Source of the DNA: a virus
IMG/VR virus record: IMGVR_UViG_3300021185_002806
DNA length: 64,000 nt
Reading direction: 5' to 3' (one strand)
Below are positions 2,895 to 56,372 of the stretch, in pieces (within the stretch, counting starts at the first letter, position 1; the number at the start of each line of letters is the position of its first letter). Made by a program: the position numbers and the translations under genes. The notes below the pieces were generated by a model, which had not been told where the DNA came from, did not search any database, and saw only the letters and a list, made by a program, of their open reading frames with translations.

Positions 2895-2902
2895 TATTTA
2901 TC
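2895..2902 (-). promoter_or_regulatory. Late promoter GATAAATA
   Basis: Overlaps the TGA stop of the helicase gene. Confidence 0.65.
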
Positions 2903-4298
2903 AGTTTTCATCAAAAGGAGAACGTGTCTTGGTCTTTAACATTGCTCTCAGATTCATTGCAACATCCGTTTTTTCTTCTGTTTGCGTTTCTTGTGTATTT
3001 ACTGTAGTTTTCTTACGTAAATTTTCCATCAAGTCTGTAGCACTTGATGATGTTTGTCCATCATCTTCTGATGTATCATCTGAAATTCTTAAGCTATCTC
3101 TATCAAAAACTAGATTAACTTTACTTCCTACACCACTAGATGAACGAGTTTTTAATAACTGCAACTGATATTGTCCACGCTCACGCATTGTGTGACTTGT
3201 AAAAATACCAATAACGTTATCCGCTGTTTGAATTTTAGATATACCACCTGCAATATGAGAATGGTCAAATTCGATTTCTTCTACCGCACTTCTATTTAAC
3301 TGTGATGCAGTAACCATAACTGTTTGAGTTTCCATAGCAAAGTTACGAATTTCTTCTGTAACATATTTGTCTTTGATAAACAAATCACTTGCTGATACTT
3401 TCTTTGTTGCAGGCATTAACAAATCTAAGTAGTCAATACACATACAATCTATAGATTTGCCTGTCTGTATTTGCAGTTCTTTGATGTATGACCTTACATC
3501 ATTAATTGTAGAACCAGAAGGCATATACTTAACTCTTAACATGCCTGACTTCTTACTTTTAGTTTTAACTTGAAGTTCTACATCATCTAATTCTTTAAAG
3601 ATACGTTTTGTACTTCTATCTGTTTGCATCGCATACATACGCATACTTGACAATGCTTCCGAAAGTTCCAGTGTTATGTAAACACAGTTCAATCCTGCTT
3701 CTGCCCAATTCAAACTCATGTTCTGCATGAACAAAGATTTACCTGCACCTGAACCACCTGCAAAAATAGTTATCTCGCCTCGGTTGATGCCACCATATAA
3801 TTTGTCATCAAGCACCTTCCAACCAGTAGTCATTTGCCCATTGTTATCTTTGAGACCTTCAAGTACGCTTCTAGGATCTGCATAATAATCTGTACCCAAT
3901 GAACGGGCAAGACCAGTCTGTACTGCTTCTTTAATTCTAAGTTCTACTTCACCATATTGACCTTGTTCAAGTAAATCTGCACTATCAATAATTGCACGTT
4001 CAATCGCTTTATGTCTACTAAATGTTTCAAACTCATCAATAAACCAATCTGTGTGTTGTTCAATATTATCTATTAATTCAATTTCTTGCCCTGTCTGTGC
4101 TTTAATTATAGCAGGAGTTGGTACAGTCGAGTATTCTTCGCTATGCTCAACTAAAGTTTCAACAACTTTTCTTAGATTTCTATCAAAAAATTTAGGTTCA
4201 ACAATAGCACGTACCCGTGAATAAAGTTCAGGATCGCTTATCATAAATTGAACAAATAGTTTTTGTAAATCTACGCTATAATCTTTTACATCAGCCAT
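2901..4298 (-). CDS. gp41: Replicative DnaB-like helicase (T4 gp41-like)
   Basis: Walker A GGSGAGKS, CIDYLDL, TASQLNR, KTRSS. Confidence 0.92.
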   Translation of the reverse strand: MADVKDYSVDLQKLFVQFMISDPELYSRVRAIVEPKFFDRNLRKVVETLVEHSEEYSTVPTPAIIKAQTGQEIELIDNIEQHTDWFIDEFETFSRHKAIERAIIDSADLLEQGQYGEVELRIKEAVQTGLARSLGTDYYADPRSVLEGLKDNNGQMTTGWKVLDDKLYGGINRGEITIFAGGSGAGKSLFMQNMSLNWAEAGLNCVYITLELSEALSSMRMYAMQTDRSTKRIFKELDDVELQVKTKSKKSGMLRVKYMPSGSTINDVRSYIKELQIQTGKSIDCMCIDYLDLLMPATKKVSASDLFIKDKYVTEEIRNFAMETQTVMVTASQLNRSAVEEIEFDHSHIAGGISKIQTADNVIGIFTSHTMRERGQYQLQLLKTRSSSGVGSKVNLVFDRDSLRISDDTSEDDGQTSSSATDLMENLRKKTTVNTQETQTEEKTDVAMNLRAMLKTKTRSPFDEN

Positions 4299-4307
4299 AT
4301 GTATATT

Positions 4308-5069
4308 CTACTCTCTCTCAGTATTAATGTCAACTGTTTTCTGCTCTTTCATGTAACAATCGTACACCCTATCAAAATTCTTATCTTCCCATTCATAATT
4401 ATCTGTAAGAAATTTTCTTAACTTTTCTTTATCATATATGTATTCTAATTCAAGAACCTTATCTTCCTTACGTTTTTCTTTAGATATAATATGAGACTCA
4501 TTCACATGTTTACTTAAATTAAATGGTACATCTGACTTATTTTTACGTAATTTATTACTATTAAGAATATCCAAACTCTTTTGTGTATTAATACAAATAA
4601 ACAAAGTTTCATTAATTTTATAATACTTAGATAGTGCCTGATATTCCTTTAGTCCACCAAACTTATCAATTATATAAAATCCATCATGGAATGTCGTAAT
4701 AGATGATTGTAAAGACCATCTGTCAGATGGAACCATATTTAATTTATACGAATGTACATCAATCATATTGATATATTGTTTTATACTACCCGGCTTATGT
4801 ATCTCATTGCAAAATGTTCTGGAAAAATCAGCAATATGATTGCACATCTTAATTGGTCTGATTGCTCCTACATCATCAATATGACAAAAGTCCTCAAACC
4901 ATATATCCTTCGTATTGACATAAATTGAAAATTTGTTATCATCTGTAATTCTTACCAAATCAACATTAGGATCTCCTACTGTTAGTAGAAGCCTAATAAA
5001 GTCACCACATGCACCACCGTGATATGTTATTGCACGATGGGTGCATCCGTTTGGCACTAATGGTATCAC
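4308..5069 (-). CDS. Hypothetical protein, possibly sulfotransferase/P-loop-like
   Basis: 253-aa AT-rich ORF; N-terminal YHGGACGDF loop; function is inference. Confidence 0.65.
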
Positions 5070-6013
5070 GAATTCAGTCTCGATTTAAATAAACTACTTA
5101 CACTTTCTTCATTACTAACTCTACGAATTGCTTCACCAAATAATTTTGAAACACTGGCTTGTCGTGTCTTCTTGCAAGTTTTAGGGCAACGATTAGAAAT
5201 GCTATCAGTTACTACTAATTCTTCTAACACACTAGCTTCTACTTTCTCACATGCTTCTCCTGTAAGAACTCCGTGTGTAATATATGCTCGTACACTTAGG
5301 GCGCCAGCATCCATAATTGCCTGTGCGGCATTGCACAATGTTCCGCCACTGTCAACAATATCATCTACTAAAATAGCATGTTGTCCGTTAACTTCACCAA
5401 TAATATTCATTACTTCGCTTACACCTGCTTTAGGTCTACGCTTGTCAACAATCGCAATGTCTCCGTGAAACATATCAGCAAATTTTCTAGCACGTACAGT
5501 ACCACCAGCATCGGGTGAAACAAATACACATCCTTCAGTAGTGTCAACATTTCGTTCAATATCTTTTGCAAATGCAATACGACTTGTTAAATCATCTACG
5601 GGAATATCAAAGAAGCCTTGAATTTGGCCTGCGTGTAAATCCATTGTAAGTATTCTATCTGCACCTGCTTCTGTCAACAAGTTTGCAACAAGTTTAGCTG
5701 TAATAGGAGTGCGACTAGCACTCTTTCTATCTTGTCTAGCATAACCAAAATAAGGGATTACTGCGGTGATACGCCTAGCACTACTACGCTTAGCCGCATC
5801 AATCATAATCATAAGTTCCATTAAATTATCATTAACTGGTGTGCTTGTGCTTTGTACAATAAACACATCTTCGCCTCGAATATTTTCATGAAATTCTACA
5901 GAACACTCACCATCAGCAAATGTTTTAATTTCGGCTGGAACAATATCAGTAAAACAATGTTCAGCTATCTTCTCTGCTAGTTCAATATTACTATTGCCTG
6001 CAATAATTTTCAT
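5066..6013 (-). CDS. prs: Ribose-phosphate pyrophosphokinase
   Basis: [43 protein letters not shown]; start MKII at 6013 behind AAGGTGG. Confidence 0.96.
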
Positions 6014-6050
6014 GTGTACCACCTTTACAAATTGTTATTATTATAATAGT

Positions 6051-6089: not shown

Positions 6090-6731
6090 CTAGTAAGTAG
6101 CAATCACTTCATCCGCAATACCATGCTTAACTGCCTCCTCCGGAGTTAACCAGTGGTCTGTTTTGGGTGCTAACATATGTTTACGAATGTACGTTTTAGT
6201 TTTTCCTGTACACTTAAGGTAATGTTCCATTAGTTTCTCATTAGTCCAGTCCATGTGTTTACGACTTTCAACCATATCATGGTATTGTCCTTTTGTGCCA
6301 CCTGAAAATTCATGTGACATGACTGCGGTATTTTGTGTAAGATAACGATGTCCTTTAACACCACTCATCATTAGCATAACACCACAACTTGCAATAGAAC
6401 CCATTCCATATGTATATACTGGAATACGTGATTGTTTAATTGTATCGATTAGATGCATACAACTATCTACATAACCACCTGGTGAATTGATATACAAGTG
6501 AATAACTTCTGGTGCTTTATCTTTTGGCATCAAGTTATATTCAACAATCATTTTCACAAGAGGCATACAGTTGTCTTGGTTAAATTCTTTATCCATAAAT
6601 AGTACACCATTTTCTCTTAAGAATTCTCCCGGCTGTTTAGGTGGGACAGGAGGTGTCGGCATCGGAGGGGGTGGGGGTGGTGCCGGTTGTTCTTTAGGTT
6701 CTGGTATTACTGTACTCTTTAATTTTTTCAT
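6090..6731 (-). CDS. clpP: ClpP-like serine protease with proline-rich N-terminus
   Basis: YINSPGG, IASCG (Ser), MSHEFSGG (His), DHWLTPEEA (Asp). Confidence 0.88.
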   Translation of the reverse strand: MKKLKSTVIPEPKEQPAPPPPPPMPTPPVPPKQPGEFLRENGVLFMDKEFNQDNCMPLVKMIVEYNLMPKDKAPEVIHLYINSPGGYVDSCMHLIDTIKQSRIPVYTYGMGSIASCGVMLMMSGVKGHRYLTQNTAVMSHEFSGGTKGQYHDMVESRKHMDWTNEKLMEHYLKCTGKTKTYIRKHMLAPKTDHWLTPEEAVKHGIADEVIATY

Positions 6732-6739
6732 AGTTTAGT

Positions 6740-7741
6740 TTATCCTATTCTCATTTTCACACTTATCTTAGTGTTGTTACTTATACGTGCATCTATAATA
6801 CTTTGTAGGGCATATAGTTTTCCATAACGTTGAATTGCATCTGCGGCATCTTTTATATCATCTTCCCACATAGGGAAAGATACACTCCAACCATTTTCTT
6901 GTGCTTGTTTGATTAATTTCTCTCCTGCTTTATCTCTATCAGGACAAACAATCACTTCTCCTTTAAACTGATTAATATAATCAATTTGGTCTTGTGAAGC
7001 CTCATTACTTGTAATCGCAATACAATCTAATGCAAGTGCATCAATTATACCTTCACATACGATTAAGTATTTATTATTAGATTTTACCTTGTCTACATTA
7101 TGCAAAAACTTTTTAGGTGCTTTTGTCATGTATTTAGACGTTGACTTTCCTGTTATGTCACGACCAGTATATCCAACTATTCTATCTCCTTGATAAAAGG
7201 GAAATATAACTCTATTCTTAAATAATTTATCAGGAGACCAATAACAATTATCTATATCATCGTATACTCCTCTATCAATTAAATATTTAACTGCATAGAT
7301 GGCACCTTCGGGAGGATTATCTTTTGCTAATAAAACTTCTAAATCTTCTGAGCCTTCTGGCAGAATGCAGTCAGGGAAACTTGGCACCCGTGTAACTTGT
7401 GTCTTTGAAGTGAATAGGTATGGACCTTCAGACAATTCTTTCTGACGGATTGCTTCTAACTGTAAACGCTTAATCTCGCTTTCAGAAACATTCATATTAC
7501 GCATGAGTTTTAGAAATTTCTTATTCAGTATTCTACCGTGACGATGGCTTGCAGTGAATCCACAGTTAAAACAGTGGTATGATATGGAATCACCGTCGCT
7601 ACGAATACCCCCACGCATTCTGTTATCCAATCGAGATTCGCCTTCCTCGATACAACATGGGCAGTTGAAACTAGTCCAGCCGCCACTAGATTGTCTGTTC
7701 TTTCCAGGGATATGTGTGAATATTACTTGTTGAAGGTCCAT
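6740..7741 (-). CDS. gp61: DNA primase (T4 gp61-like)
   Basis: Zn ribbon CPCC...HCFNCG; TOPRIM CEGIIDAL and DRDKAG. Confidence 0.88.
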   Translation of the reverse strand: MDLQQVIFTHIPGKNRQSSGGWTSFNCPCCIEEGESRLDNRMRGGIRSDGDSISYHCFNCGFTASHRHGRILNKKFLKLMRNMNVSESEIKRLQLEAIRQKELSEGPYLFTSKTQVTRVPSFPDCILPEGSEDLEVLLAKDNPPEGAIYAVKYLIDRGVYDDIDNCYWSPDKLFKNRVIFPFYQGDRIVGYTGRDITGKSTSKYMTKAPKKFLHNVDKVKSNNKYLIVCEGIIDALALDCIAITSNEASQDQIDYINQFKGEVIVCPDRDKAGEKLIKQAQENGWSVSFPMWEDDIKDAADAIQRYGKLYALQSIIDARISNNTKISVKMRIG

Positions 7742-8633: not shown

Positions 8634-9026
8634 GTGATGGACAATGAAAAACAACAATGGATGCAAGAAAATTATCCTTTTTTCTCATATGTACGATATG
8701 GAAATAAAAAAGAATATAAAGAGTATCTTGGAATAATTATAAATTCAGACCAGGTCATAACTTCGATGTACAATTTCGAGGCGATACCAACACCTGAATT
8801 AAGAAAGAAGTTCGTAGAATTAGGAGAACAATGGTGGTGGGAGTCAAATAGACTTATGCCGATTAATTTATTTTTAGGCACTCAAATTGCAACTTACAAG
8901 AATTGGATTTTAAATTGTAATTCAAAAGACGTTACTGTTTTGTGGGGACCAGAAACTAGCTTGTCAAATATTATACAGAAACGTATTAAGAGGCGTTCTG
9001 TTCAACTTGTTCGCAAAATAGATTAA
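8634..9026 (+). CDS. Hypothetical protein
   Basis: 130-aa ORF with protein-like composition (WWWESNR) and its own TAAATA motif. Confidence 0.72.
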   Translation: MMDNEKQQWMQENYPFFSYVRYGNKKEYKEYLGIIINSDQVITSMYNFEAIPTPELRKKFVELGEQWWWESNRLMPINLFLGTQIATYKNWILNCNSKDVTVLWGPETSLSNIIQKRIKRRSVQLVRKID

Positions 9027-9600
9027 GCTGAACCACAATACTTACTGCATATGCAATCGCATGTGCTTTTTTAAAATAGTAAGTACCATCTTCTGGCTTT
9101 TGCCAAACTAATTCAGAAATCTTGGACTTACTTTCGTTGAGCAAGTGCCTCTTAGCGGGTCTAATTACAGCTAGAACTTCTGCTAGTTCCATTATAGTTT
9201 GAGGCTTCATCACTTTTAAAACATCTATATGATTATGAACGTGTGCTAAGTTCTTAACAACATCCGCATGTTGTAACAAATCCCACAAAGGCTCCTTATC
9301 AATAAGACTGTCAAGGTGTGCTTCATCACGTATACCATCATACAAACTATTGTTAAGAAAATCTAACTTAAAATATCCACGTTTTTCAGCTTCTTTATAT
9401 TCTAAACTAGATAACCCAGAAATAGGATCATATGGAATAGGTTGTAGATATACACCACTATTATGCTTTGTCCAGTTATCACCTTTTTTGATACTAGCCG
9501 TTATGTGTCGAAAATGTGTAAGGACTGTGTCACGGTCAATTACATCAATATCTATATCTGTTTCTACCTTATTCATATTTTTAGTATACACTATTTCCAT
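8986..9600 (-). CDS. Miniature DNA polymerase III alpha (family C) catalytic core
   Basis: DIDID, KHNSG, YFKLDFL, IRPA, YFKKAHAIAY in DnaE order; start 9600 or 9576. Confidence 0.75.
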   Translation of the reverse strand: MEIVYTKNMNKVETDIDIDVIDRDTVLTHFRHITASIKKGDNWTKHNSGVYLQPIPYDPISGLSSLEYKEAEKRGYFKLDFLNNSLYDGIRDEAHLDSLIDKEPLWDLLQHADVVKNLAHVHNHIDVLKVMKPQTIMELAEVLAVIRPAKRHLLNESKSKISELVWQKPEDGTYYFKKAHAIAYAVSIVVQLNLFCEQVEQNAS

Positions 9601-9911
9601 ACCATTGTAAAGTATGCCGCATCAGTATCATTTTTAAAATACAATTTTCCTTGATAAGCAACATAAAAATCCTTGCAATGCGTATTGCACCAATCTACTA
9701 ATTGTGTCACGTGTCCAGCACCTTCAACTAATAATTTATCATAATTTATATCATCATGAGACATAGCAGTCCATTCTAAAAACTCTTTGTTTTCAAAATC
9801 ACTATGGAACCTTCTTAAGTTCTTTACTTTATTCTGCAATTTTCTAAGTCTTTCAAGTCGTTTCTTGACATTAGAATGTCGCATAAGTTCGCCATATTCT
9901 GCCATAGGCAT
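9591..9911 (-). CDS. Hypothetical protein
   Basis: 106-aa ORF, AGGAG RBS, consensus promoter upstream. Confidence 0.72.
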   Translation of the reverse strand: MPMAEYGELMRHSNVKKRLERLRKLQNKVKNLRRFHSDFENKEFLEWTAMSHDDINYDKLLVEGAGHVTQLVDWCNTHCKDFYVAYQGKLYFKNDTDAAYFTMVWK

Positions 9912-9962: not shown

Positions 9963-9970
9963 GATAAATA
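9963..9970 (+). promoter_or_regulatory. Late promoter GATAAATA (divergent)
   Basis: 26 nt before ATG 9997. Confidence 0.6.
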
Positions 9971-9996
9971 CGTATATAATATTATGAAAGTTTACA

Positions 9997-11028
9997 ATGA
10001 AAATTAAGTTATTAGATTTAGATATCGATTTAAATAATGAAATAGACCTTCACTTCTTGCATGAAAAGATATTGTATATAAAATATCTAAATTTACGCAA
10101 TATAGAAAGTAGTGATATTTATACCAAAATATATAGAAAAGAGGTAGAAGAACTATGGCTTGAAAAGGCGCTAACAGGAAGTTGGCATTCAAACTCTAAA
10201 AAAGTATATAGATATGATGATGATAAGTACGAAAATGTGAGTGAAGACTTTACAATGTGCTGGAAGAAAACAGACAAAGACTTCGATAAACTTATTATCA
10301 ATCTAACAAGCTATGCCGGACATGATGGCAGACTTACAAGTTCATTAACAAATGTGAGTGATAAAATATATAACCTCGATACAGATTTATTAATTGTAAA
10401 TGAGGATCCATTACGGTTTCCTGAATCTTTATACCCTAGTGCAATGGTGTTAGGATGTAGTGATAAAAATAATACACAAGAAAAAATGTGTAATCAAATA
10501 AGAGAGTATATCAAAAAGAAATACAGACATGTTATAATATATGCAGATTCAAAACATGCCGGTAGTGCCGTAAGTATAGCATATGAATTAAGTGATATTG
10601 TAACAAATGTACTAACTACAGGCGGACAAACAACATATTCATGGGAGCATTCTCCTTGGATTAAATCATATATGAAATGGCATAATAGACCAGAACATCT
10701 TAAGGACCAAAACTTAATAATGTTAGATGTTGCAATGATGCATTTAGTAAAATGTTGGGGGTTTAAAAAGTTAGATATTAATAATAAGACACTAGACCCA
10801 TATAGATATCTAGGCGGATATCCTAATATAAAAGTAGATTACCTATATGGAAAATATGATACCGATTACAGTGGGTTTACAGATTATGTAAAACAGTTTG
10901 ATTTTGAAAATTTGTGTGTTACAGAAATCGATTATAAGATATCAGACCATCAAAATCATAACATAAGACCGTATGTAGATAGAAAAATACTTAAAGATTT
11001 TATATATAATCTTCCAGACTCTTTATAA
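9997..11028 (+). CDS. Hypothetical protein, possibly alpha/beta-hydrolase-like
   Basis: 343-aa very AT-rich ORF; IIYADSKHAGSAVSIA resembles a nucleophile elbow (weak). Confidence 0.65.
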   Translation: MKIKLLDLDIDLNNEIDLHFLHEKILYIKYLNLRNIESSDIYTKIYRKEVEELWLEKALTGSWHSNSKKVYRYDDDKYENVSEDFTMCWKKTDKDFDKLIINLTSYAGHDGRLTSSLTNVSDKIYNLDTDLLIVNEDPLRFPESLYPSAMVLGCSDKNNTQEKMCNQIREYIKKKYRHVIIYADSKHAGSAVSIAYELSDIVTNVLTTGGQTTYSWEHSPWIKSYMKWHNRPEHLKDQNLIMLDVAMMHLVKCWGFKKLDINNKTLDPYRYLGGYPNIKVDYLYGKYDTDYSGFTDYVKQFDFENLCVTEIDYKISDHQNHNIRPYVDRKILKDFIYNLPDSL

Positions 11029-11785
11029 AATCTGGTCTGCTAATACGTGTCTTCTTTAGTAAACGTTGAGTATACCAATTCAATAAATCCATTTTATGCA
11101 GATTATATAAATCTTGGTAATGTATAAATCTTTCTCTATCAACATCACCGTATATAGATATATCTTTAGGTGATAAATTATCAATATCATTTACTACGAA
11201 AAGTTTATCTTTTGGGATACATATTAACGCACCCTTTTGCTTGTCTACTTGCGCCTTGAAGACGCCATAAAACGCCCTGAGAGCATCATCGTCTTCTTCG
11301 TGCATCCTACTAGTATAATATTCATTACATGCAACTTTAAACATAGAATTAAAATCTAAAGAAATAGACAGAAACTTGGTATGTGTACTATTAAATTTAT
11401 TCGTTATTGTTCTATAGATTTCAGGGTTATCATAAGGTGAATCTAGTATCAATCTAGGATGTGTATTAAACAATACCTTAGTTGGTGAAAGTGAATCAAA
11501 ATGAGGTTGAAAATCTAACCATATTTTATGCGATAGCATATAGTCTGTATAGTTTTCAACATGTTCATATCCGTTTCCTCTTAGGCCTAACGCATATCTA
11601 TTTCTTCTTACTATTGCTTTATCTGTTTCCCAATATCTATCATGTTCATCCATAGTGGCATAGTTATCATAATAACCTTTAACAGAGTAAGAAATTATAC
11701 CAGATAAGTAATCACCATAAGTTCCAGCGAAATATTCTAATAAGTGTGTTTGTTGATTTAATTTTTTTGGTATATGGTGTTTCAT
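11000..11785 (-). CDS. Hypothetical protein, putative paralogue of 4308-5069
   Basis: N-terminal YFAGTYGDY loop; start MKHH via ATGA overlap with the PRTase stop. Confidence 0.68.
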   Translation of the reverse strand: MKHHIPKKLNQQTHLLEYFAGTYGDYLSGIISYSVKGYYDNYATMDEHDRYWETDKAIVRRNRYALGLRGNGYEHVENYTDYMLSHKIWLDFQPHFDSLSPTKVLFNTHPRLILDSPYDNPEIYRTITNKFNSTHTKFLSISLDFNSMFKVACNEYYTSRMHEEDDDALRAFYGVFKAQVDKQKGALICIPKDKLFVVNDIDNLSPKDISIYGDVDRERFIHYQDLYNLHKMDLLNWYTQRLLKKTRISRPDFIKSLEDYI

Positions 11786-12288
11786 GTTTCCCAAGGAAAT
11801 GTTATCCAATTGTCATCTTCTGAGTATAGTTCTTCATAATAATAATCAGTATCTACAATAGAATTTGGATCCATAATAAGTGATGCAAACTTAACATTAT
11901 CGTGCCAAATGTTTTCCCAAGTTAACGTATCGTTAGGTAAGCAACCAGCTTTCCAATCATTCATGAGCCATGCAAGAGCATCACCGCCACGATTGATATC
12001 GTCAATAACTAATATGTTTTTTTGCTTATCTTTGTAACCAAAGGCATCTTCTGCCATCCAGCAATTACTTTCTGTATTTTCTTCAAGTCCATCTGCACCA
12101 AGTTGTATTGAAAGTGTATGCATTGGAATGTTAGTCATATGAGATAACATAACCGCTGGTACTAACCCACCACGTGTTATACCAACAATATAATCAGGTC
12201 TCCATTCACTTTCATACATTTGCATTGCAATGTGTTGAATGCCTTTTTCTACTTTAGACCAATCATAATTAATCTTCTTCATCTTCAT
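11782..12288 (-). CDS. Type I phosphoribosyltransferase (purine salvage-like)
   Basis: IVGITRGGLVPA, ILVIDDINRGG, WITFPWE. Confidence 0.85.
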   Translation of the reverse strand: MKMKKINYDWSKVEKGIQHIAMQMYESEWRPDYIVGITRGGLVPAVMLSHMTNIPMHTLSIQLGADGLEENTESNCWMAEDAFGYKDKQKNILVIDDINRGGDALAWLMNDWKAGCLPNDTLTWENIWHDNVKFASLIMDPNSIVDTDYYYEELYSEDDNWITFPWET

Positions 12289-12781
12289 CCTCCGGTCCTG
12301 GTGAATTCAAAAATGCATCTGCGATTTTATATTGCTCATATATATCTGCAAGTACTTTATATTTTTCTAAAGTCTTTTCATCAGGCTTTTGTAAAACTTT
12401 TAATCTTTTTGAAATATCATCTACTTGTTCAATGACTTCGCTCATTTTTCTTTCTTTGCCATTAACTGTCACATGCAAATCTGGATCTACATCTTCAAAC
12501 GTGTACCCACTTCCGCCTAGTGTCAAACTAGAAGGTGAACTACTATATGTATAATCTGGCAACGTGACAGTAGTTGGAGAAGTCGATGTAACTGTCAAAT
12601 CAAAAGTAGAATCGCTTAATATAAAATCTTCATCGACTCTTTGTCTTTCTAATTCTTCTTTTTTCCAAGTTTGTATTTCGTCAAATTCTTCCAGTAATTC
12701 TTTTTCCATACTTCCACTAATTCTTCTAGTCACAGTTTTGCCTCCATCTGGACTTTCATAAATATATTTTTTATCATTCAT
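12269..12781 (-). CDS. Hypothetical protein
   Basis: 170-aa ORF overlapping neighbours; YIYESPDGGKTV N-terminus, Ser/Thr-rich linker. Confidence 0.7.
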   Translation of the reverse strand: MNDKKYIYESPDGGKTVTRRISGSMEKELLEEFDEIQTWKKEELERQRVDEDFILSDSTFDLTVTSTSPTTVTLPDYTYSSSPSSLTLGGSGYTFEDVDPDLHVTVNGKERKMSEVIEQVDDISKRLKVLQKPDEKTLEKYKVLADIYEQYKIADAFLNSPGPEDEDEED

Positions 12782-15046: not shown

Positions 15047-15550
15047 TTAGAAAAAATCATAACTGTTTAATACGTCTGGAATTCTATTTAAGTCTTTAAC
15101 GAAATATGCACACTTTGGTTTAGGACCATGCTCTAATGGTATAACTAATATATGTCCATATTTTAGTTTTGGAAAAAACCATTTTACATCTGCAAATACG
15201 TTGTTAACTTTAATGTCTTCCCACCCCATTGTAAAGCCTGCGAGAGGATTTGTCAAGATAGTTTGAAAGGATCTTTCATTAATACTTGTCAATGGAATAA
15301 ATTCTAATTGTCCTAAGTCAGGATCTCCAATTAAAATATTCCAATCTATTGGCATTTCTATTGTCCAAGGGCCGATACTTAAGTTAATACTAGGTGCGTT
15401 AAATGTTTCAATAAACACTAATGGAATAAAAAAGAAGTCTGGTTCATTCTTATCTGTTACATCCATTACGCAATATCTTATGTCTTCAATTTCATTTTCT
15501 GGTAGACTGTTCATTTCATAACAGTGATTTTCTGGTGTTAAAATTTTCAT
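15047..15550 (-). CDS. Hypothetical all-beta protein coupled to uvsW
   Basis: 167 aa; TAATG overlap with the uvsW stop. Confidence 0.75.
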   Translation of the reverse strand: MKILTPENHCYEMNSLPENEIEDIRYCVMDVTDKNEPDFFFIPLVFIETFNAPSINLSIGPWTIEMPIDWNILIGDPDLGQLEFIPLTSINERSFQTILTNPLAGFTMGWEDIKVNNVFADVKWFFPKLKYGHILVIPLEHGPKPKCAYFVKDLNRIPDVLNSYDFF

Positions 15551-16995
15551 TAATAATTTACCTTATCTATTGTAAAAGGATACTCTGCATCCTTATAATA
15601 TTTTTTACGTTCTGTTAAATGGCGTCTACTGAATTTACATCTACTTGTTACATCCCAAACATTCACAAAGTCTTTATCTTTTGCAATACGCACGCCTCGT
15701 CCTATAGACTGTATTACACGTACAAAACTTTTGCCTGGTTCAAGCAATACCAGATTGAATATTCTTGGAATATTAATTCCCACCGCGGCGACACCGTAAG
15801 TCGCAATAGTTATTGAATTTGTTGCTTGATTAATTTCATCATATGCATCTTTTCTATCAACTACTTTCATTGATCCCTGAACGAATTCAGAACCATCTAA
15901 TAGTTCTTGTAACATATTTCCGTTACTAATTCTACCAGTTAAAACTAATGTATTGCCTGATTTAGATATATCCTTAATCATATTTGCCACATACTGCATA
16001 CGTTTTTTATCTTCTAATAAAAACTTTAGTTCGCTTTGATAGTCACCATACTCTGCTGTTTCGCACGTTTGTACAATATTAACATGACACTTAGCAAGTA
16101 CCCCTTGGTCTTGTAACTCTTTGGCCGCTAGTTTATTGATAACTTGTCCCAATGAACTTCTCAATGAAGCTGATTCCCAATCACTCTTTGGTATAGTTCC
16201 AGTCAAGCCCCAACGAATAGGAACATTCGAAAATACACCAGTTAGTAATTCTTTGAGTACATCTGCCTTTGCCTGATGAACCTCATCGACCATAACACAG
16301 ATTACGTCTTCAATAAATTCCTGTATATTCGCTTCACCTTTTTTAGATTTTTTCAATAGCGAATTCAAACTTTGCCAAGTACAGATTGTGTGCGTTTTTC
16401 CTATATCTTTCTTATCACCAAAATACACACCCACGTCCAATCCACAGTTTTCATAATCTTCAAATGTTTGCCTTACCAAATCCTTATTTGGTACAATCAC
16501 AATACTACGACCATAAATTTCTACTATCTTAGATAAAGTGGCTGTTATAATAGTCTTTCCTGCGCCTGTGGCGACCTCTTGTAAGCATTGTGGATACTCT
16601 ATGAACTTATTGACAATATCTACCTGATAGTCTCTTAAAATGATGTTTTCGCCCTCTGCTACATGTCCAGTTGGCCATACAGTATCACCCCAATAATCTT
16701 CCGATACTTTTGTGAATTCCAAAGAGTGCGTTTCTCTGTTATCTTCAATTTTTACTTCATACCCATTGTCCATTATAACTGGCAATACATCATCAAGTAA
16801 ATTTAAAAATGTTCTACCACCAACATCGCAGAACCTCACTGTACCATCCCAACGTCCTAATTTAAATGCTGGCATATGATACGCATGTGGCAAGAAAAAC
16901 TTTAACTTGTCAGAACACTTCCTACGAGTAGCCGGGTCGAGTCCTTCTAATTTAATGTTTACTTCATCCTTGATTTTAATGATACATTCTTTCAT
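15550..16995 (-). CDS. uvsW: UvsW-like SF2 DNA helicase
   Basis: ATGAGKT, VDEVH, GLTGT, QSIGRGVR. Confidence 0.9.
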   Translation of the reverse strand: MKECIIKIKDEVNIKLEGLDPATRRKCSDKLKFFLPHAYHMPAFKLGRWDGTVRFCDVGGRTFLNLLDDVLPVIMDNGYEVKIEDNRETHSLEFTKVSEDYWGDTVWPTGHVAEGENIILRDYQVDIVNKFIEYPQCLQEVATGAGKTIITATLSKIVEIYGRSIVIVPNKDLVRQTFEDYENCGLDVGVYFGDKKDIGKTHTICTWQSLNSLLKKSKKGEANIQEFIEDVICVMVDEVHQAKADVLKELLTGVFSNVPIRWGLTGTIPKSDWESASLRSSLGQVINKLAAKELQDQGVLAKCHVNIVQTCETAEYGDYQSELKFLLEDKKRMQYVANMIKDISKSGNTLVLTGRISNGNMLQELLDGSEFVQGSMKVVDRKDAYDEINQATNSITIATYGVAAVGINIPRIFNLVLLEPGKSFVRVIQSIGRGVRIAKDKDFVNVWDVTSRCKFSRRHLTERKKYYKDAEYPFTIDKVNY

Positions 16996-18545: not shown

Positions 18546-19154
18546 CTATTTAATTTCATTATTATTTGCGGCTTCTTTAAGTTGTTTACGGCCGGCTGTC
18601 TGGGAGTCTCCAGATTTCCATGTTTTATATGTATGACAACATGCACATAATGTCTGAAAATTAGAACCATCAGTTGGTTCATTATATGGATTGCCGTCCA
18701 TATGGTCTACTTGTAACATCGGTTGAGGGAATCCATAATCTCTTAACCATTCTATTGATTTAGGCAATGGCGGGTCATAATATATATTGGTGGTGCATTT
18801 AAATCCCAAACGACCATCTATATTTTCACAGTAAGGTTTTCGCCATTGTAAATGATAAGGGGTGCCGCCATGCTGTTCACAGTATTCAGAAAACTTAAGT
18901 TCTCCTTCGTGATTTGTTCCTAACAATGTTGCTTTTTTTCTACAATTCTTAATTGTACATGTCGGATATTGGCGCTTTGTTAAATTCGATGATAAATTTT
19001 GAAAATTCTTTCGTCTTAAATTGTGACACTTTCCGCAGTATTTTCGCCAAACAGGCTTGTCTGCTGATGCCGTATTATGTGCTAAATCTTCACATCCTTC
19101 TGTTTGACATACCGGTCGTGGTACAGAATAATCATTCCTTTGGGCTTTAGCCAT
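18546..19154 (-). CDS. HNH endonuclease with Cys/His-rich repeats
   Basis: LQVDHMDGN...NFQTLCACCH; start MAKA behind GGAGG. Confidence 0.75.
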   Translation of the reverse strand: MAKAQRNDYSVPRPVCQTEGCEDLAHNTASADKPVWRKYCGKCHNLRRKNFQNLSSNLTKRQYPTCTIKNCRKKATLLGTNHEGELKFSEYCEQHGGTPYHLQWRKPYCENIDGRLGFKCTTNIYYDPPLPKSIEWLRDYGFPQPMLQVDHMDGNPYNEPTDGSNFQTLCACCHTYKTWKSGDSQTAGRKQLKEAANNNEIK

Positions 19155-19155
19155 A

Positions 19156-19413
19156 TCATAACCTCCGTTCAATCTCTTCCAGTTGTTTAAGATGTTTATT
19201 ATGCTTATCACGTATTAGTACATACTTGTCCCAAGTTGCATAATTATGACTTTCCGGTCCATGCATACTATTACGCATTCCAGCACTAGATTTTGCCAAT
19301 GCTTCACCAAATGGCCACCACTCTAATATTTCTTTTGTATCTTCCTTATATACCAAATATACCGGTATATTTTTAGAAATAGCATCTTCCAGTGTGTTGT
19401 TTTTCAAATTCAT
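19156..19413 (-). CDS. Hypothetical protein
   Basis: 85-aa ORF with GAGG RBS. Confidence 0.68.
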   Translation of the reverse strand: MNLKNNTLEDAISKNIPVYLVYKEDTKEILEWWPFGEALAKSSAGMRNSMHGPESHNYATWDKYVLIRDKHNKHLKQLEEIERRL

Positions 19414-54005: not shown

Positions 54006-56372
54006 TTATTGCTCGTCCATGTAAACTACTTCTACTTCATCGTCTTCTGCAAGAACGTCTGAGGCAAAAGTTAGTCCACTTGAAGTAATTGTTACTTCAT
54101 TTGGTCTCGCCATAATTCTGTTGATATAAACAACAGCATATGGTGAATCATTTATTTCTGATGCAAAATCTACGGCGTTTGAGCCTAAAGAAATTTTACC
54201 AGAAGTTAAATTTGCCCATGTGATTGAGTGCGATGAACCAGTGTTATCTGTTTCGTCTTGTGCAGTTGTCTCATAAGCATGTGTGTGTTTTTTAGAAGTG
54301 TTACCTAACTGTACATAACGACCATCTAGTGATACTGTAACATCTGACTGTGTACCAACTGATAAAGTTAGTGTACCACTTGAGAATGAAGCACCATCTA
54401 CATAGTCATTGACTTCTGTTTGTGTGTTAGTAACAGTTAAAGTACCTGCCGCATCATCATATGATATGCCAATACCTGTTCCTGCTGAAACATTAGCCAT
54501 TACCGCATCTTGGGCTCTTTCATCAGTGAAGAACAAGTTTGATGATCCCTCAGTAATTTCGTCTGAGTTATCAACACCTTGAACTGCCGCTGTTACGTAA
54601 GCCTGTGTTGCGTATGAGTTAGTTGTTAGATAAGAACTTACACGTGCATCTGTGTAATAAAGATTAGTTGAACCTTCAGATACATCATCACTGTCCATAC
54701 TTGCATTGATATAAGCATCAACTCTTGCATCTGTATAGTACAAGTTTGTACCTTCAGATACGTCAGTTGTTGATTTATTACCAAGTCTTGTATCAAATAG
54801 TGCGTTCACTCTAGCATCTGTATGATAAAGATTATTTGAACCTTCAGAAAGGCTATCTGTATCTTTAATAGCTAGTCTTGTATCAAATAGTGTGTTCACT
54901 CTAGCATCTGTATGGTATTTGTTATTTGTACCTTCAGTCAAATCATCTGTATCAGAAGCGGATAAGTTTAAGTTAGCACCAGTTGCCGCGGCAACTCTTG
55001 CATCTGCTCTCGCATCTGTAAAGTACAGATTAGTTGAACCTTCTGCTAAATTATCAGTATTCTTAGTTGATAATCTTGTATCCCAACGTGCGTCTGTGTA
55101 ATAAAGATTAGTTGAACCTTCAGATACATCGTCTGTATCTTTAGTGCCTAATCTTGTATCAAAACGTGCGTTAGTATAATAAAGGTTAGTTGTACCTTCT
55201 GCTAAATCATCTGTGTCGCTTGATGCTAAACCTTGTGTTGAGATAACACCAGTTGATGAATTATATGTCAAGTCACCTGAAACTGAAATTGCCGCTCTTG
55301 CTCTTGCATCAGTGAAATACTGATTTGAACCTTCAGACAAGTTAGTTGTTGAGTGATTTGAAATGCTAGATACTGTACCTGTTACATCACCTGTTACGTC
55401 ACCTGTTACGTCACCAATAAATGTTGCCGCTGTTACGTCACCAGAAGAATAAAAATCTTCTGCGCCGATTGACCAACGGTCGTTAGTTTCGTCCCATAAT
55501 AGTTGTACGTTTAGGTCATCACCACGTTCAATTTCGATACCGCCTGAAATTGATGCTGTACCAGTTGCATCTGAATTTAATAGTAGAATATTATCTGCTA
55601 AGTCAATTTGTGATGTATTGATTGTAGTTGTTGTACCATTAACTGTTAAGTTACCTGTAACTGTTACGTTGCTTGAGAAAGTACCAGTTGTACCTGAAAC
55701 AGCGTTTGAACCTGAACCAATGCCTGTGCTTATTGCATTATCAACATAAGTCTTGTTCGCCGCGTCACTTCCAGTTGTTGGAGTTCCAACTTCTTTGATA
55801 ACATTTGAATTCATGTCAATGTGGTCACCCACTTGAATATCACCAGATGAAGTCTTAAGTTCACCTGTAAACTGAATTCCGTTGCTTGATTCAATTTGCA
55901 AAGTACCAGTACCAGTAGTCATCAGTTTCAACGTTTCGTTAGCGTCCGTTTTAACTGTGATAGTGCCACTATCGTCTTCTAGAATCTTTTTGTTGTTGAT
56001 GTATAGTGATCCTGGCCCTAAGTAAAGGTCACGCCATCTTTTTGTTGTTGAGCCTAAGTCGTATGTATCATCCGTACCAGGTAGGATATCACCGGTGTAT
56101 TCTGAATTACCTGTGACATTTACGCCTGCTGAGAATGTAGCTGTATTTGTTACTGCTAGTGTACCGCCAACTGTTACATTACTTGTAAATGCACCAGTAG
56201 TAGAAGAAGACGTTCCGCCTTCTCTCATAAGTGGGTAACCGCCAGTTGTTGCGCCATCGTGTACTACAAGAGTTTTCTTGTCTGTATCGACCGTAACTTC
56301 ACCTACTAGGCCAGTAAATGATGAGTGTTGTGTCGTTGTACCACGACGGAACTGTATTGCATATGCCGCCAT
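54006..56372 (-). CDS. Long tail fibre with Mtd_N-like N-terminus and repeated shaft
   Basis: IQFRRGTT...GEVTVDTD...VHDG; nine TDD(L/V)xEGxxNLY(Y/F)TDAR repeats. Confidence 0.8.
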   Translation of the reverse strand: MAAYAIQFRRGTTTQHSSFTGLVGEVTVDTDKKTLVVHDGATTGGYPLMREGGTSSSTTGAFTSNVTVGGTLAVTNTATFSAGVNVTGNSEYTGDILPGTDDTYDLGSTTKRWRDLYLGPGSLYINNKKILEDDSGTITVKTDANETLKLMTTGTGTLQIESSNGIQFTGELKTSSGDIQVGDHIDMNSNVIKEVGTPTTGSDAANKTYVDNAISTGIGSGSNAVSGTTGTFSSNVTVTGNLTVNGTTTTINTSQIDLADNILLLNSDATGTASISGGIEIERGDDLNVQLLWDETNDRWSIGAEDFYSSGDVTAATFIGDVTGDVTGDVTGTVSSISNHSTTNLSEGSNQYFTDARARAAISVSGDLTYNSSTGVISTQGLASSDTDDLAEGTTNLYYTNARFDTRLGTKDTDDVSEGSTNLYYTDARWDTRLSTKNTDNLAEGSTNLYFTDARADARVAAATGANLNLSASDTDDLTEGTNNKYHTDARVNTLFDTRLAIKDTDSLSEGSNNLYHTDARVNALFDTRLGNKSTTDVSEGTNLYYTDARVDAYINASMDSDDVSEGSTNLYYTDARVSSYLTTNSYATQAYVTAAVQGVDNSDEITEGSSNLFFTDERAQDAVMANVSAGTGIGISYDDAAGTLTVTNTQTEVNDYVDGASFSSGTLTLSVGTQSDVTVSLDGRYVQLGNTSKKHTHAYETTAQDETDNTGSSHSITWANLTSGKISLGSNAVDFASEINDSPYAVVYINRIMARPNEVTITSSGLTFASDVLAEDDEVEVVYMDEQ
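54516..55350 (-). repeat. Array of nine degenerate coding repeats (approximate bounds)
   Basis: Peptide repeat above; two adjacent 90-bp units near 54780-54950 are nearly identical. Confidence 0.8.
55380..55416 (-). repeat. 12-bp tandem repeat encoding GDVT x3
   Basis: ctgttac(a/g)tcac units. Confidence 0.75.

Follow-up and report, generated by a model that had tools for sequence, protein, structure and literature searches.

The minus-strand gene at 8986..9600 of the window (the 64,000-nucleotide stretch of DNA analysed here, from the uncultured marine jumbo phage IMGVR_UViG_3300021185_002806) encodes a 204-residue protein that consists of the metal-binding palm strands and reduced fingers of a C-family polymerase, i.e. 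the C-terminal half of a split minimal Pol III alpha (termed here the C-half). The comparisons described below, for which the partner of the C-half was sought in relatives, establish its identity, the split architecture, the co-occurrence of the two halves, purifying selection and the fold. On this basis we propose, with a probability of about 80%, that the C-half is the C-terminal subunit of a two-polypeptide, ~380-residue minimal C-family nucleotidyltransferase of the 'group 2.2' jumbo phages, most likely a second DNA polymerase beside a family B polymerase (PolB).

The translation of the C-half contains five DnaE motifs, all on the minus strand and in the DnaE order. The DIDID sequence (residues 15-19; 9544..9558) is the counterpart of DnaE PDFDVDF, which carries the first two catalytic Asp residues, and aligns with MPDIDIDF at residues 413-420 of Mycobacterium tuberculosis (Mtb) DnaE1; D15, D17 and D19 are each invariant across 25 relatives with identities down to 51%, the set to which invariance refers throughout. 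KHNSG (residues 45-49; 9454..9468) corresponds to DnaE H-x-x-G, with H46 and G49 invariant, and is followed by GYFKLDFLN (residues 75-83; 9352..9378), which contains the third catalytic Asp, D80, aligns with Mtb DnaE1 GLLKMDFL, and is invariant at all nine of its residues. The finger motifs comprise RPAK (residues 147-150; 9151..9162), the counterpart of DnaE YRPG, which aligns with ALYRPG and has R147, P148 and K150 invariant (IRPAK spanning residues 146-150), and FKKAHAIAY (residues 176-184; 9049..9075), the counterpart of DnaE FNKSHAAAY, which aligns with FNKSHAAGY and has F176, K177, K178, H180, A181 and Y184 invariant. The first-pass annotation of this DNA, which gave no strand for the gene, had listed DIDID, KHNSG, FKLDFL (KLDFL being residues 78-82), RP and FKKAHAIAY in this order, and each is where it had been placed; the invariance and the match of the C-half to phrog_11778 ('DNA polymerase' in PHROGs; E 3e-70, residues 10-198 on profile positions 3-194 of 197) reveal that the motifs are not a matter of chance. 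The description of these as all the hallmark DnaE motifs holds for the five, but not for the GRGS nucleotide-binding motif which, with the first half of the palm, is absent from the translation of the 204-aa ORF.

The spacing between the DxD and HxxG motifs is 30 residues in the C-half compared with 111 in a full-length DnaE (P0170), and the thumb is therefore deleted. Overall, motif spacing indicates the loss of ~80 residues of thumb and ~80 of fingers relative to full-length DnaE, and neither the length of the C-half nor its motif spacing leaves room for PHP, thumb or OB domains. The annotation had likewise described PHP, clamp-binding and OB parts as absent, in agreement with the length, with the spacing and with the lack of a match to the PHP domain (PF02811) in two relatives, G001 and G002. 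No clamp-binding motif was accepted in the C-half on inspection of its variable C-terminal tail; QLNLF (residues 191-195), near the C terminus, was considered as a beta-clamp motif and rejected, as it lies inside the conserved last finger helix and is QMNLI or HMNLL in relatives.

A Pfam scan of the C-half returned no family, even at E values up to 10 (DNA_pol3_alpha, PF07733, and the finger domain included). A tblastn search against cultured phages gave 96 matching records, all below 60% identity and all from jumbo phages, including PA5oct-like, Atu_ph07, SCTP-2 and Rak2-like phages, in which the gene is a stand-alone ORF of ~200 aa in the same neighbourhood, as the annotation had anticipated in suggesting that related phages may carry similar short genes; the C-half is at most 51% identical to the cultured examples (PA5oct, Atu_ph07). 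With the C-half profile, a search of 1.84 billion representatives yielded 530 clusters (50% identity; E cut-off 0.001), and each half is encoded in no fewer than 592 IMG/VR stretches. The C-half ORF is uniform in length (186-222 aa in all 80 of the stretches that were fetched), and the translation of many C-half relatives opens directly at MPDIDIDF. The dN/dS of the C-half against three relatives is 0.06-0.08, a substitution pattern that indicates an intact gene under strong purifying selection. The start codon is ambiguous, there being an alternative at M9 (ATG at 9576) that gives a 196-aa protein, and members of the identical-protein cluster are called at 196, 201 or 204 aa; M9 may be the true start, because relatives of 94% identity lack a start codon where M1 lies. 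An identical C-half protein is also encoded on a 322-kb contig.

Sequence scores between the C-half and cellular enzymes are weak. A PDB search with the single sequence gave no match, and a profile search of the PDB matched only M. tuberculosis DnaE1, at a weak E of 0.14, with four motif blocks aligned in order; aligning the C-half profile with a single full-length DnaE by hhalign gave a similarly weak result (E 0.019, 28 columns). Given these scores, the assignment of homology to DnaE rests on motif collinearity together with fold. The AF2 model of the C-half alone has a mean pLDDT of 77, with values above 90 for residues 91-204 and of 41-68 for the palm strands. Its structural matches are headed by seven C-family polymerases (Z 5.4-8.3, compared with 4.2 for the next fold), including PolC (Z 8.3) and the E. 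coli alpha subunit (Z 7.0, with model residues 82-202 superposed on chain residues 559-784).

The gene for the N-terminal half (the N-half) was not found within the 64-kb window. It is present in G001, an IMG/VR relative of 342,607 bp that has direct terminal repeats and is rated 100% complete; G001 runs collinear with the window (nucleotide identity 78-88%), and its C-half is 94% identical. The single PF07733 match in G001 (E 5e-10; 39.8 bits, with a cut-off of 23.9) is to a 184-aa ORF at 333.3 kb, ~85 kb from the C-half gene, the product of which also matches phrog_11127 (E 2e-46), contains WGVGRGSSVSSYVLYLLG and has the C terminus ...KYELDINEFLK. In relatives, it is this separate N-half protein that carries the GRGS motif. 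The last 71 residues of the G001 N-half align with DnaE 326-396, stopping at FERFLN (hhalign E 2e-6); in full-length DnaE, DFDIDF lies seven residues beyond FERFLN, which is the point where the C-half begins, i.e. the N-half ends with ...EFLK where DnaE runs on into PDFDVDF. The same arrangement recurs widely: in all 80 stretches fetched of the at least 592, N-half ORFs are 157-202 aa long and end with EF[LM][KR] plus at most six more residues, and in none of the 80 does a C-half lie within 2 kb, the distance between the genes in relatives being ~85-120 kb or more. As judged from these termini, the split point between ERFLN and PDxDxDF is constant. A reading of the two genes as parts of a split intein was considered and rejected, because the DnaE motifs themselves form the end of the N-halves and the start of the C-halves, leaving no space for intein sequences; association of the halves would thus be non-covalent.

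The N-half, the C-half and PolB occur together in all four near-complete relatives searched (G001, G002, G007 and G008), and three partial records (G003, G009 and G010) likewise have the two halves; the records without one of the halves are 33-56% complete. PolB was found in six of six relative records searched, that of G001 being a 929-aa frame with a PF00136 match (E 5e-33), and none was seen among the scanned ORFs of the window. The search for PolB and for a partner that the first-pass annotation had proposed thus found both when it was run in relatives, and its suggestion that the protein might be one half of a split replicase is supported by the separate N-half gene and by the natural fusions described below. 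The same observations count against its heading of a stand-alone core, as does the palm, which is predicted with low confidence in the C-half alone and with high confidence in the fused forms. A full-length DnaE in relatives, which the annotation would have taken as a sign that the gene is a decayed fragment, is not present in the complete genome of G001, where PF07733 detects the 184-aa N-half only. There is no PHP domain match in that genome, nor was a DnaQ-type exonuclease detected in G001 or G002. A 551-aa protein with PHP and PF07733 matches (P0166) was considered as an 'intermediate' form, and is probably a fragment because its cluster holds a 1140-aa full-length DnaE.

A further feature of the family is the existence of rare natural single-chain forms. 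The search of representatives returned P0082, a protein of 375 aa in which the C-half profile matches residues 190-371, and whose layout is an N-half (with GVGRGSS and ending ...KEFIK), a 10-residue linker, and then DFDID and the remainder of a C-half. Five such fused sequences (P0082, P0152, P0153, P0167 and P0168), all metagenome proteins, are 375-376 aa long and 75-81% identical with a conserved junction, which is known from the protein sequences; fused forms are present on at least 10 contigs (ENA, Logan). Only the profile search of representatives brought them to light; when longer relatives of P0001 (358-2000 aa) were looked for, none was found. No locus of a fused form was found in IMG/VR, and one metagenome scan gave a truncated partial match only. 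In the joint alignment (A4) of fused proteins, N-halves and a reduced set of C-halves, all but the last ~nine N-half residues are correctly placed. A maximum-likelihood tree was built from 65 C-half domains, which comprised the A1 set, P0154-P0164, one in four of the full-length representatives (the remainder not being included) and the five fused proteins. In this tree, the fused forms constitute one clade (100/100) inside a 100/100 clade with nine other members, all of them stand-alone and of 206-222 aa. As the fused clade is nested among stand-alone forms, one secondary fusion would be the simplest history, provided that the root lies outside that 100/100 clade.

The AF2 model of the fused protein has a mean pLDDT of 87.5 and a pTM of 0.86, with the palm strands near 90. 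It superposes on the Taq and Mtb Pol III alpha structures with a Z of 21.2 (345 of its 375 residues aligned), on PolC with a Z of 20.4 and on E. coli alpha with a Z of ~15, and the top 17 Foldseek matches are all C-family polymerases (E 1.6e-8). The next fold is at Z 4.9, and comprises other Pol-beta-like nucleotidyltransferases, namely ANT(2''), MenT and CCA-adding enzymes (Z 3.8-4.9). That the palm is poorly defined in models of the C-half alone and well defined in the fused chain fits an active site that would be built from both pieces, and the occurrence of the natural fusion is classical evidence for the two halves acting together. The N-terminal part of the N-half in the fused model (m3686fe8dae09, residues 1-90; L084:1162-1713) has a beta/alpha pattern at pLDDT 64-81 and aligns inside the PHP domain, from chain residues 10-15 of DnaE or 351 of PolC; it may be a vestigial PHP remnant devoid of the metal-binding His motifs, a possibility that we regard only as a lead.

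The C-half gene lies within a conserved replication module. Its 3' end overlaps by 41 nt that of a convergent plus-strand gene (8634..9026) encoding a 130-aa protein that matches phrog_11637 (E 3e-28). Of 82 loci, ranging from marine phages to the PA5oct-like and Rak2-like groups, 79 have this gene beside the C-half and the remaining three are cut by contig ends. This protein could be a partner of the C-half or merely part of a rigid module; an ESM Atlas look-up of it was uninformative. Upstream, a minus-strand ORF of 106 aa (9591..9911), the stop of which overlaps the ATG at 9600 by 10 nt, is present in 43 of the 82 loci and is conserved only in the marine clade. On the other side of the 130-aa gene, and likewise on the minus strand, a gene for a 271-aa protein (phrog_14467) precedes that for a DnaG/gp61-type primase (6740..7741; phrog_47, E 1e-44), two genes downstream of the C-half and syntenic in 77 of 82 loci. 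Between the primase and a gp41/DnaB-type replicative helicase (2901..4298, minus strand; PF03796, E 2e-18; syntenic in 66 of 82 loci) are minus-strand genes for a ClpP-like protease (6090-6731; PF00574, E 6e-34; syntenic in 44 of 82 loci) and a PRPP synthetase (5066-6022; phrog_619, E 5e-49). The same module includes a UvsW-like helicase gene (15550-16995, minus strand), its order being UvsW-like helicase, several genes without an assigned function, a variable insert, the 106-aa ORF, the C-half, the 130-aa gene (plus strand), the 271-aa gene, primase, ClpP-like protease, PRPP synthetase and gp41-like helicase; the order C-half / 130-aa / 271-aa / primase is kept in 76-79 of the 82 loci, PA5oct-like and Rak2-like ones included. 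The window also encodes a gp32-like SSB and UvsX. The T4-type replisome recognised in the first-pass annotation is thus confirmed for the gp41-like helicase, the primase and the gp32-like SSB, with UvsX and the UvsW-like helicase as further components.

We propose that the C-half would supply the beta-strands bearing three metal-binding Asp residues (D15, D17 and D80), the H-x-x-G hairpin and the cut-down fingers (RP..K and FKKxHxxxY), with the ~184-aa N-half supplying the first half of a Pol-beta-like palm and the GRGS nucleotide-binding motif. The two would associate non-covalently to rebuild one active site, and the complex may add dNTPs on a template; templated incorporation is suggested by the invariance of the finger motifs, which are specific to Pol III alpha. 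Such an enzyme would be devoid of thumb, PHP, clamp-binding, OB and tau-binding parts, and would work beside a complete T4-type replisome with PolB as the main replicase. Because it would have no thumb, clamp site or proofreader and is accompanied by PolB, it is most likely a distributive, non-proofreading second polymerase that fills gaps, takes part in repair or serves a specialised step in replication or recombination, rather than a main replicase. With the thumb, clamp-binding site and proofreader lost, the enzyme is unlikely to be a processive replicase, and could also serve as a nucleotidyltransferase other than a polymerase. The bolder proposal, on which we would put even odds, is that the ~380-residue two-gene enzyme does polymerise DNA. 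It would then be the smallest known member of the C-family polymerases, working without thumb, clamp, PHP domain or proofreader and dedicated to a particular step beside PolB.

The alternative that deserves most weight, although we consider it unlikely, is that the two-piece enzyme is a nucleotidyltransferase that does not carry out templated DNA synthesis, e.g. a terminal transferase, a modifier of primers or ends, or an enzyme producing a nucleotide signal or a modified nucleotide for use in phage-host conflict. The absence of thumb, clamp-binding, OB and PHP parts altogether, the complete PolB replicase that relatives already have and the identity of the structural neighbours below the C-family (ANT(2''), MenT and CCA-adding enzymes) would all be in keeping with such a role. 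It does not readily account for the invariance of RP..K and FKKxHxxxY, for the Z of 21 with which the fused model superposes on Pol III alpha through both palm and fingers (at most 5 for other nucleotidyltransferases), or for the location of the C-half within a conserved primase-helicase module. Activity of the 204-aa C-half by itself, as a stand-alone minimal polymerase, might be imagined from the presence of the three catalytic Asp residues and the finger motifs in one polypeptide. We consider it very improbable, as the protein lacks both the GRGS nucleotide-binding helix and the first palm half, the part of the palm that is present is poorly predicted alone (pLDDT 41-68), every near-complete relative searched has an N-half, and the natural fusions join exactly the N-half and C-half.

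Least probable of all is that the C-half is a pseudogene left by the decay of a full-length DnaE, or a structural remnant devoid of activity. The protein covers about a fifth of DnaE and has no Pfam match, as might be expected of such a remnant, but the conservation data effectively refute this reading, with a low dN/dS, invariant active-site residues, a family of 530 clusters and at least 592 IMG/VR stretches in which length is uniform in the 80 kept, and relatives that have no full-length DnaE (G001) and no PHP domain (G001 and G002) from which a fragment might derive. The two-subunit, second-polymerase interpretation accordingly remains the one that we prefer. Biochemical assays of the split enzyme's activity or of the association of its halves were not found in the literature, and the PA5oct omics paper and a 2026 jumbo-phage review do not mention the enzyme. 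The fused forms support the one-enzyme interpretation and provide a simple, one-polypeptide version for use in assays.

Bacterial DnaE and PolC (PDB 2HPI, 5LEW, 2HNH and 3F2B) have the same motif order as the two phage halves taken together (GRGS, PDxDxDF, HxxG, KxDFL, RPG, FxKxHxxxY), and the fused relative superposes on them at Z 14-21. The two halves together amount to ~380 aa, whereas the bacterial proteins have 1100-1450, and the phage enzyme differs both in being without PHP, clamp-binding, HhH, OB and tau-binding parts and in having its chain cut into two genes. In Synechocystis and Nostoc, dnaE-n and dnaE-c are likewise distant genes, each with a part of a split intein, and protein trans-splicing gives a full-length DnaE. 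The phage and cyanobacterial systems therefore have in common that two distant genes encode one C-family polymerase, but many of the phage C-halves start with MPDIDIDF, the N-halves end with EFLK, and no space is left for intein parts.

The closest precedent is computational: section 3.4.1 of Iyer, Anantharaman, Krishnan, Burroughs and Aravind (2021, Viruses 13:63; PMC7824862) describes a phage-specific minimal Pol III alpha of the 'group 2.2' jumbo phages, made up of an NTP-binding N-terminal protein and a C-terminal one that binds Mg and template, the genes of which lie far apart in genomes that also carry a family B polymerase. These authors suggest that it may resemble the ancestral core from which the cellular Pol III alpha grew. 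As far as that section describes the family (phrog_11778 corresponding to the C-half and phrog_11127 to the N-half), the protein reported here has the same length of ~200 aa, DxD motif, third Asp and template-binding fingers, the same distant NTP-binding gene and PolB (both seen in relatives), a T4-like helicase, primase and SSB, and a similar jumbo genome size (342.6 kb in the relative). There is no essential difference from that description, and the C-half, whose source is an uncultured marine lineage, adds a further copy to a family known since 2021; the novelty is smaller than the first-pass annotation had supposed, since the split minimal Pol III alpha with PolB is set out there. The constant split point, the strict co-occurrence of the halves, the strong purifying selection and the natural fused forms are useful additions. 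Single-chain fused forms are not mentioned in that section of the 2021 paper, and are in that respect new here.

C-family polymerases are regarded as large, bacteria-specific replicases, and a ~380-aa version encoded by two genes beside PolB raises the question of what constitutes the minimum Pol III-type active site, as well as of why one phage would keep two unrelated polymerases. If the proposal is correct, very abundant marine and enterobacterial jumbo phages would devote such an enzyme to a dedicated step, e.g. gap filling in recombination-dependent replication.

Several other features of the window merit comment. The region at ~9997-12781 has the appearance of a variable insert in the replication module, its ORFs at 9997-11028, 11000-11809 and 12269-12781 having no PHROG match, and close to it G001 has ~3.3 kb without a counterpart in the window (window 9970-9996 compared with L003:6276-9614). 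A 221-aa ORF on the minus strand (18546-19211) carries an HNH endonuclease domain at its C terminus (several PHROGs, E ~1e-5), and is possibly a homing endonuclease within the replication/recombination module. At 54006-56372, also on the minus strand, the window encodes a 788-aa protein with an N-terminal Mtd_N domain (PF18454, E 3e-16), a domain that forms the N terminus of the major tropism determinant in Bordetella phage BPP-1, and this protein is probably a receptor-binding fibre.
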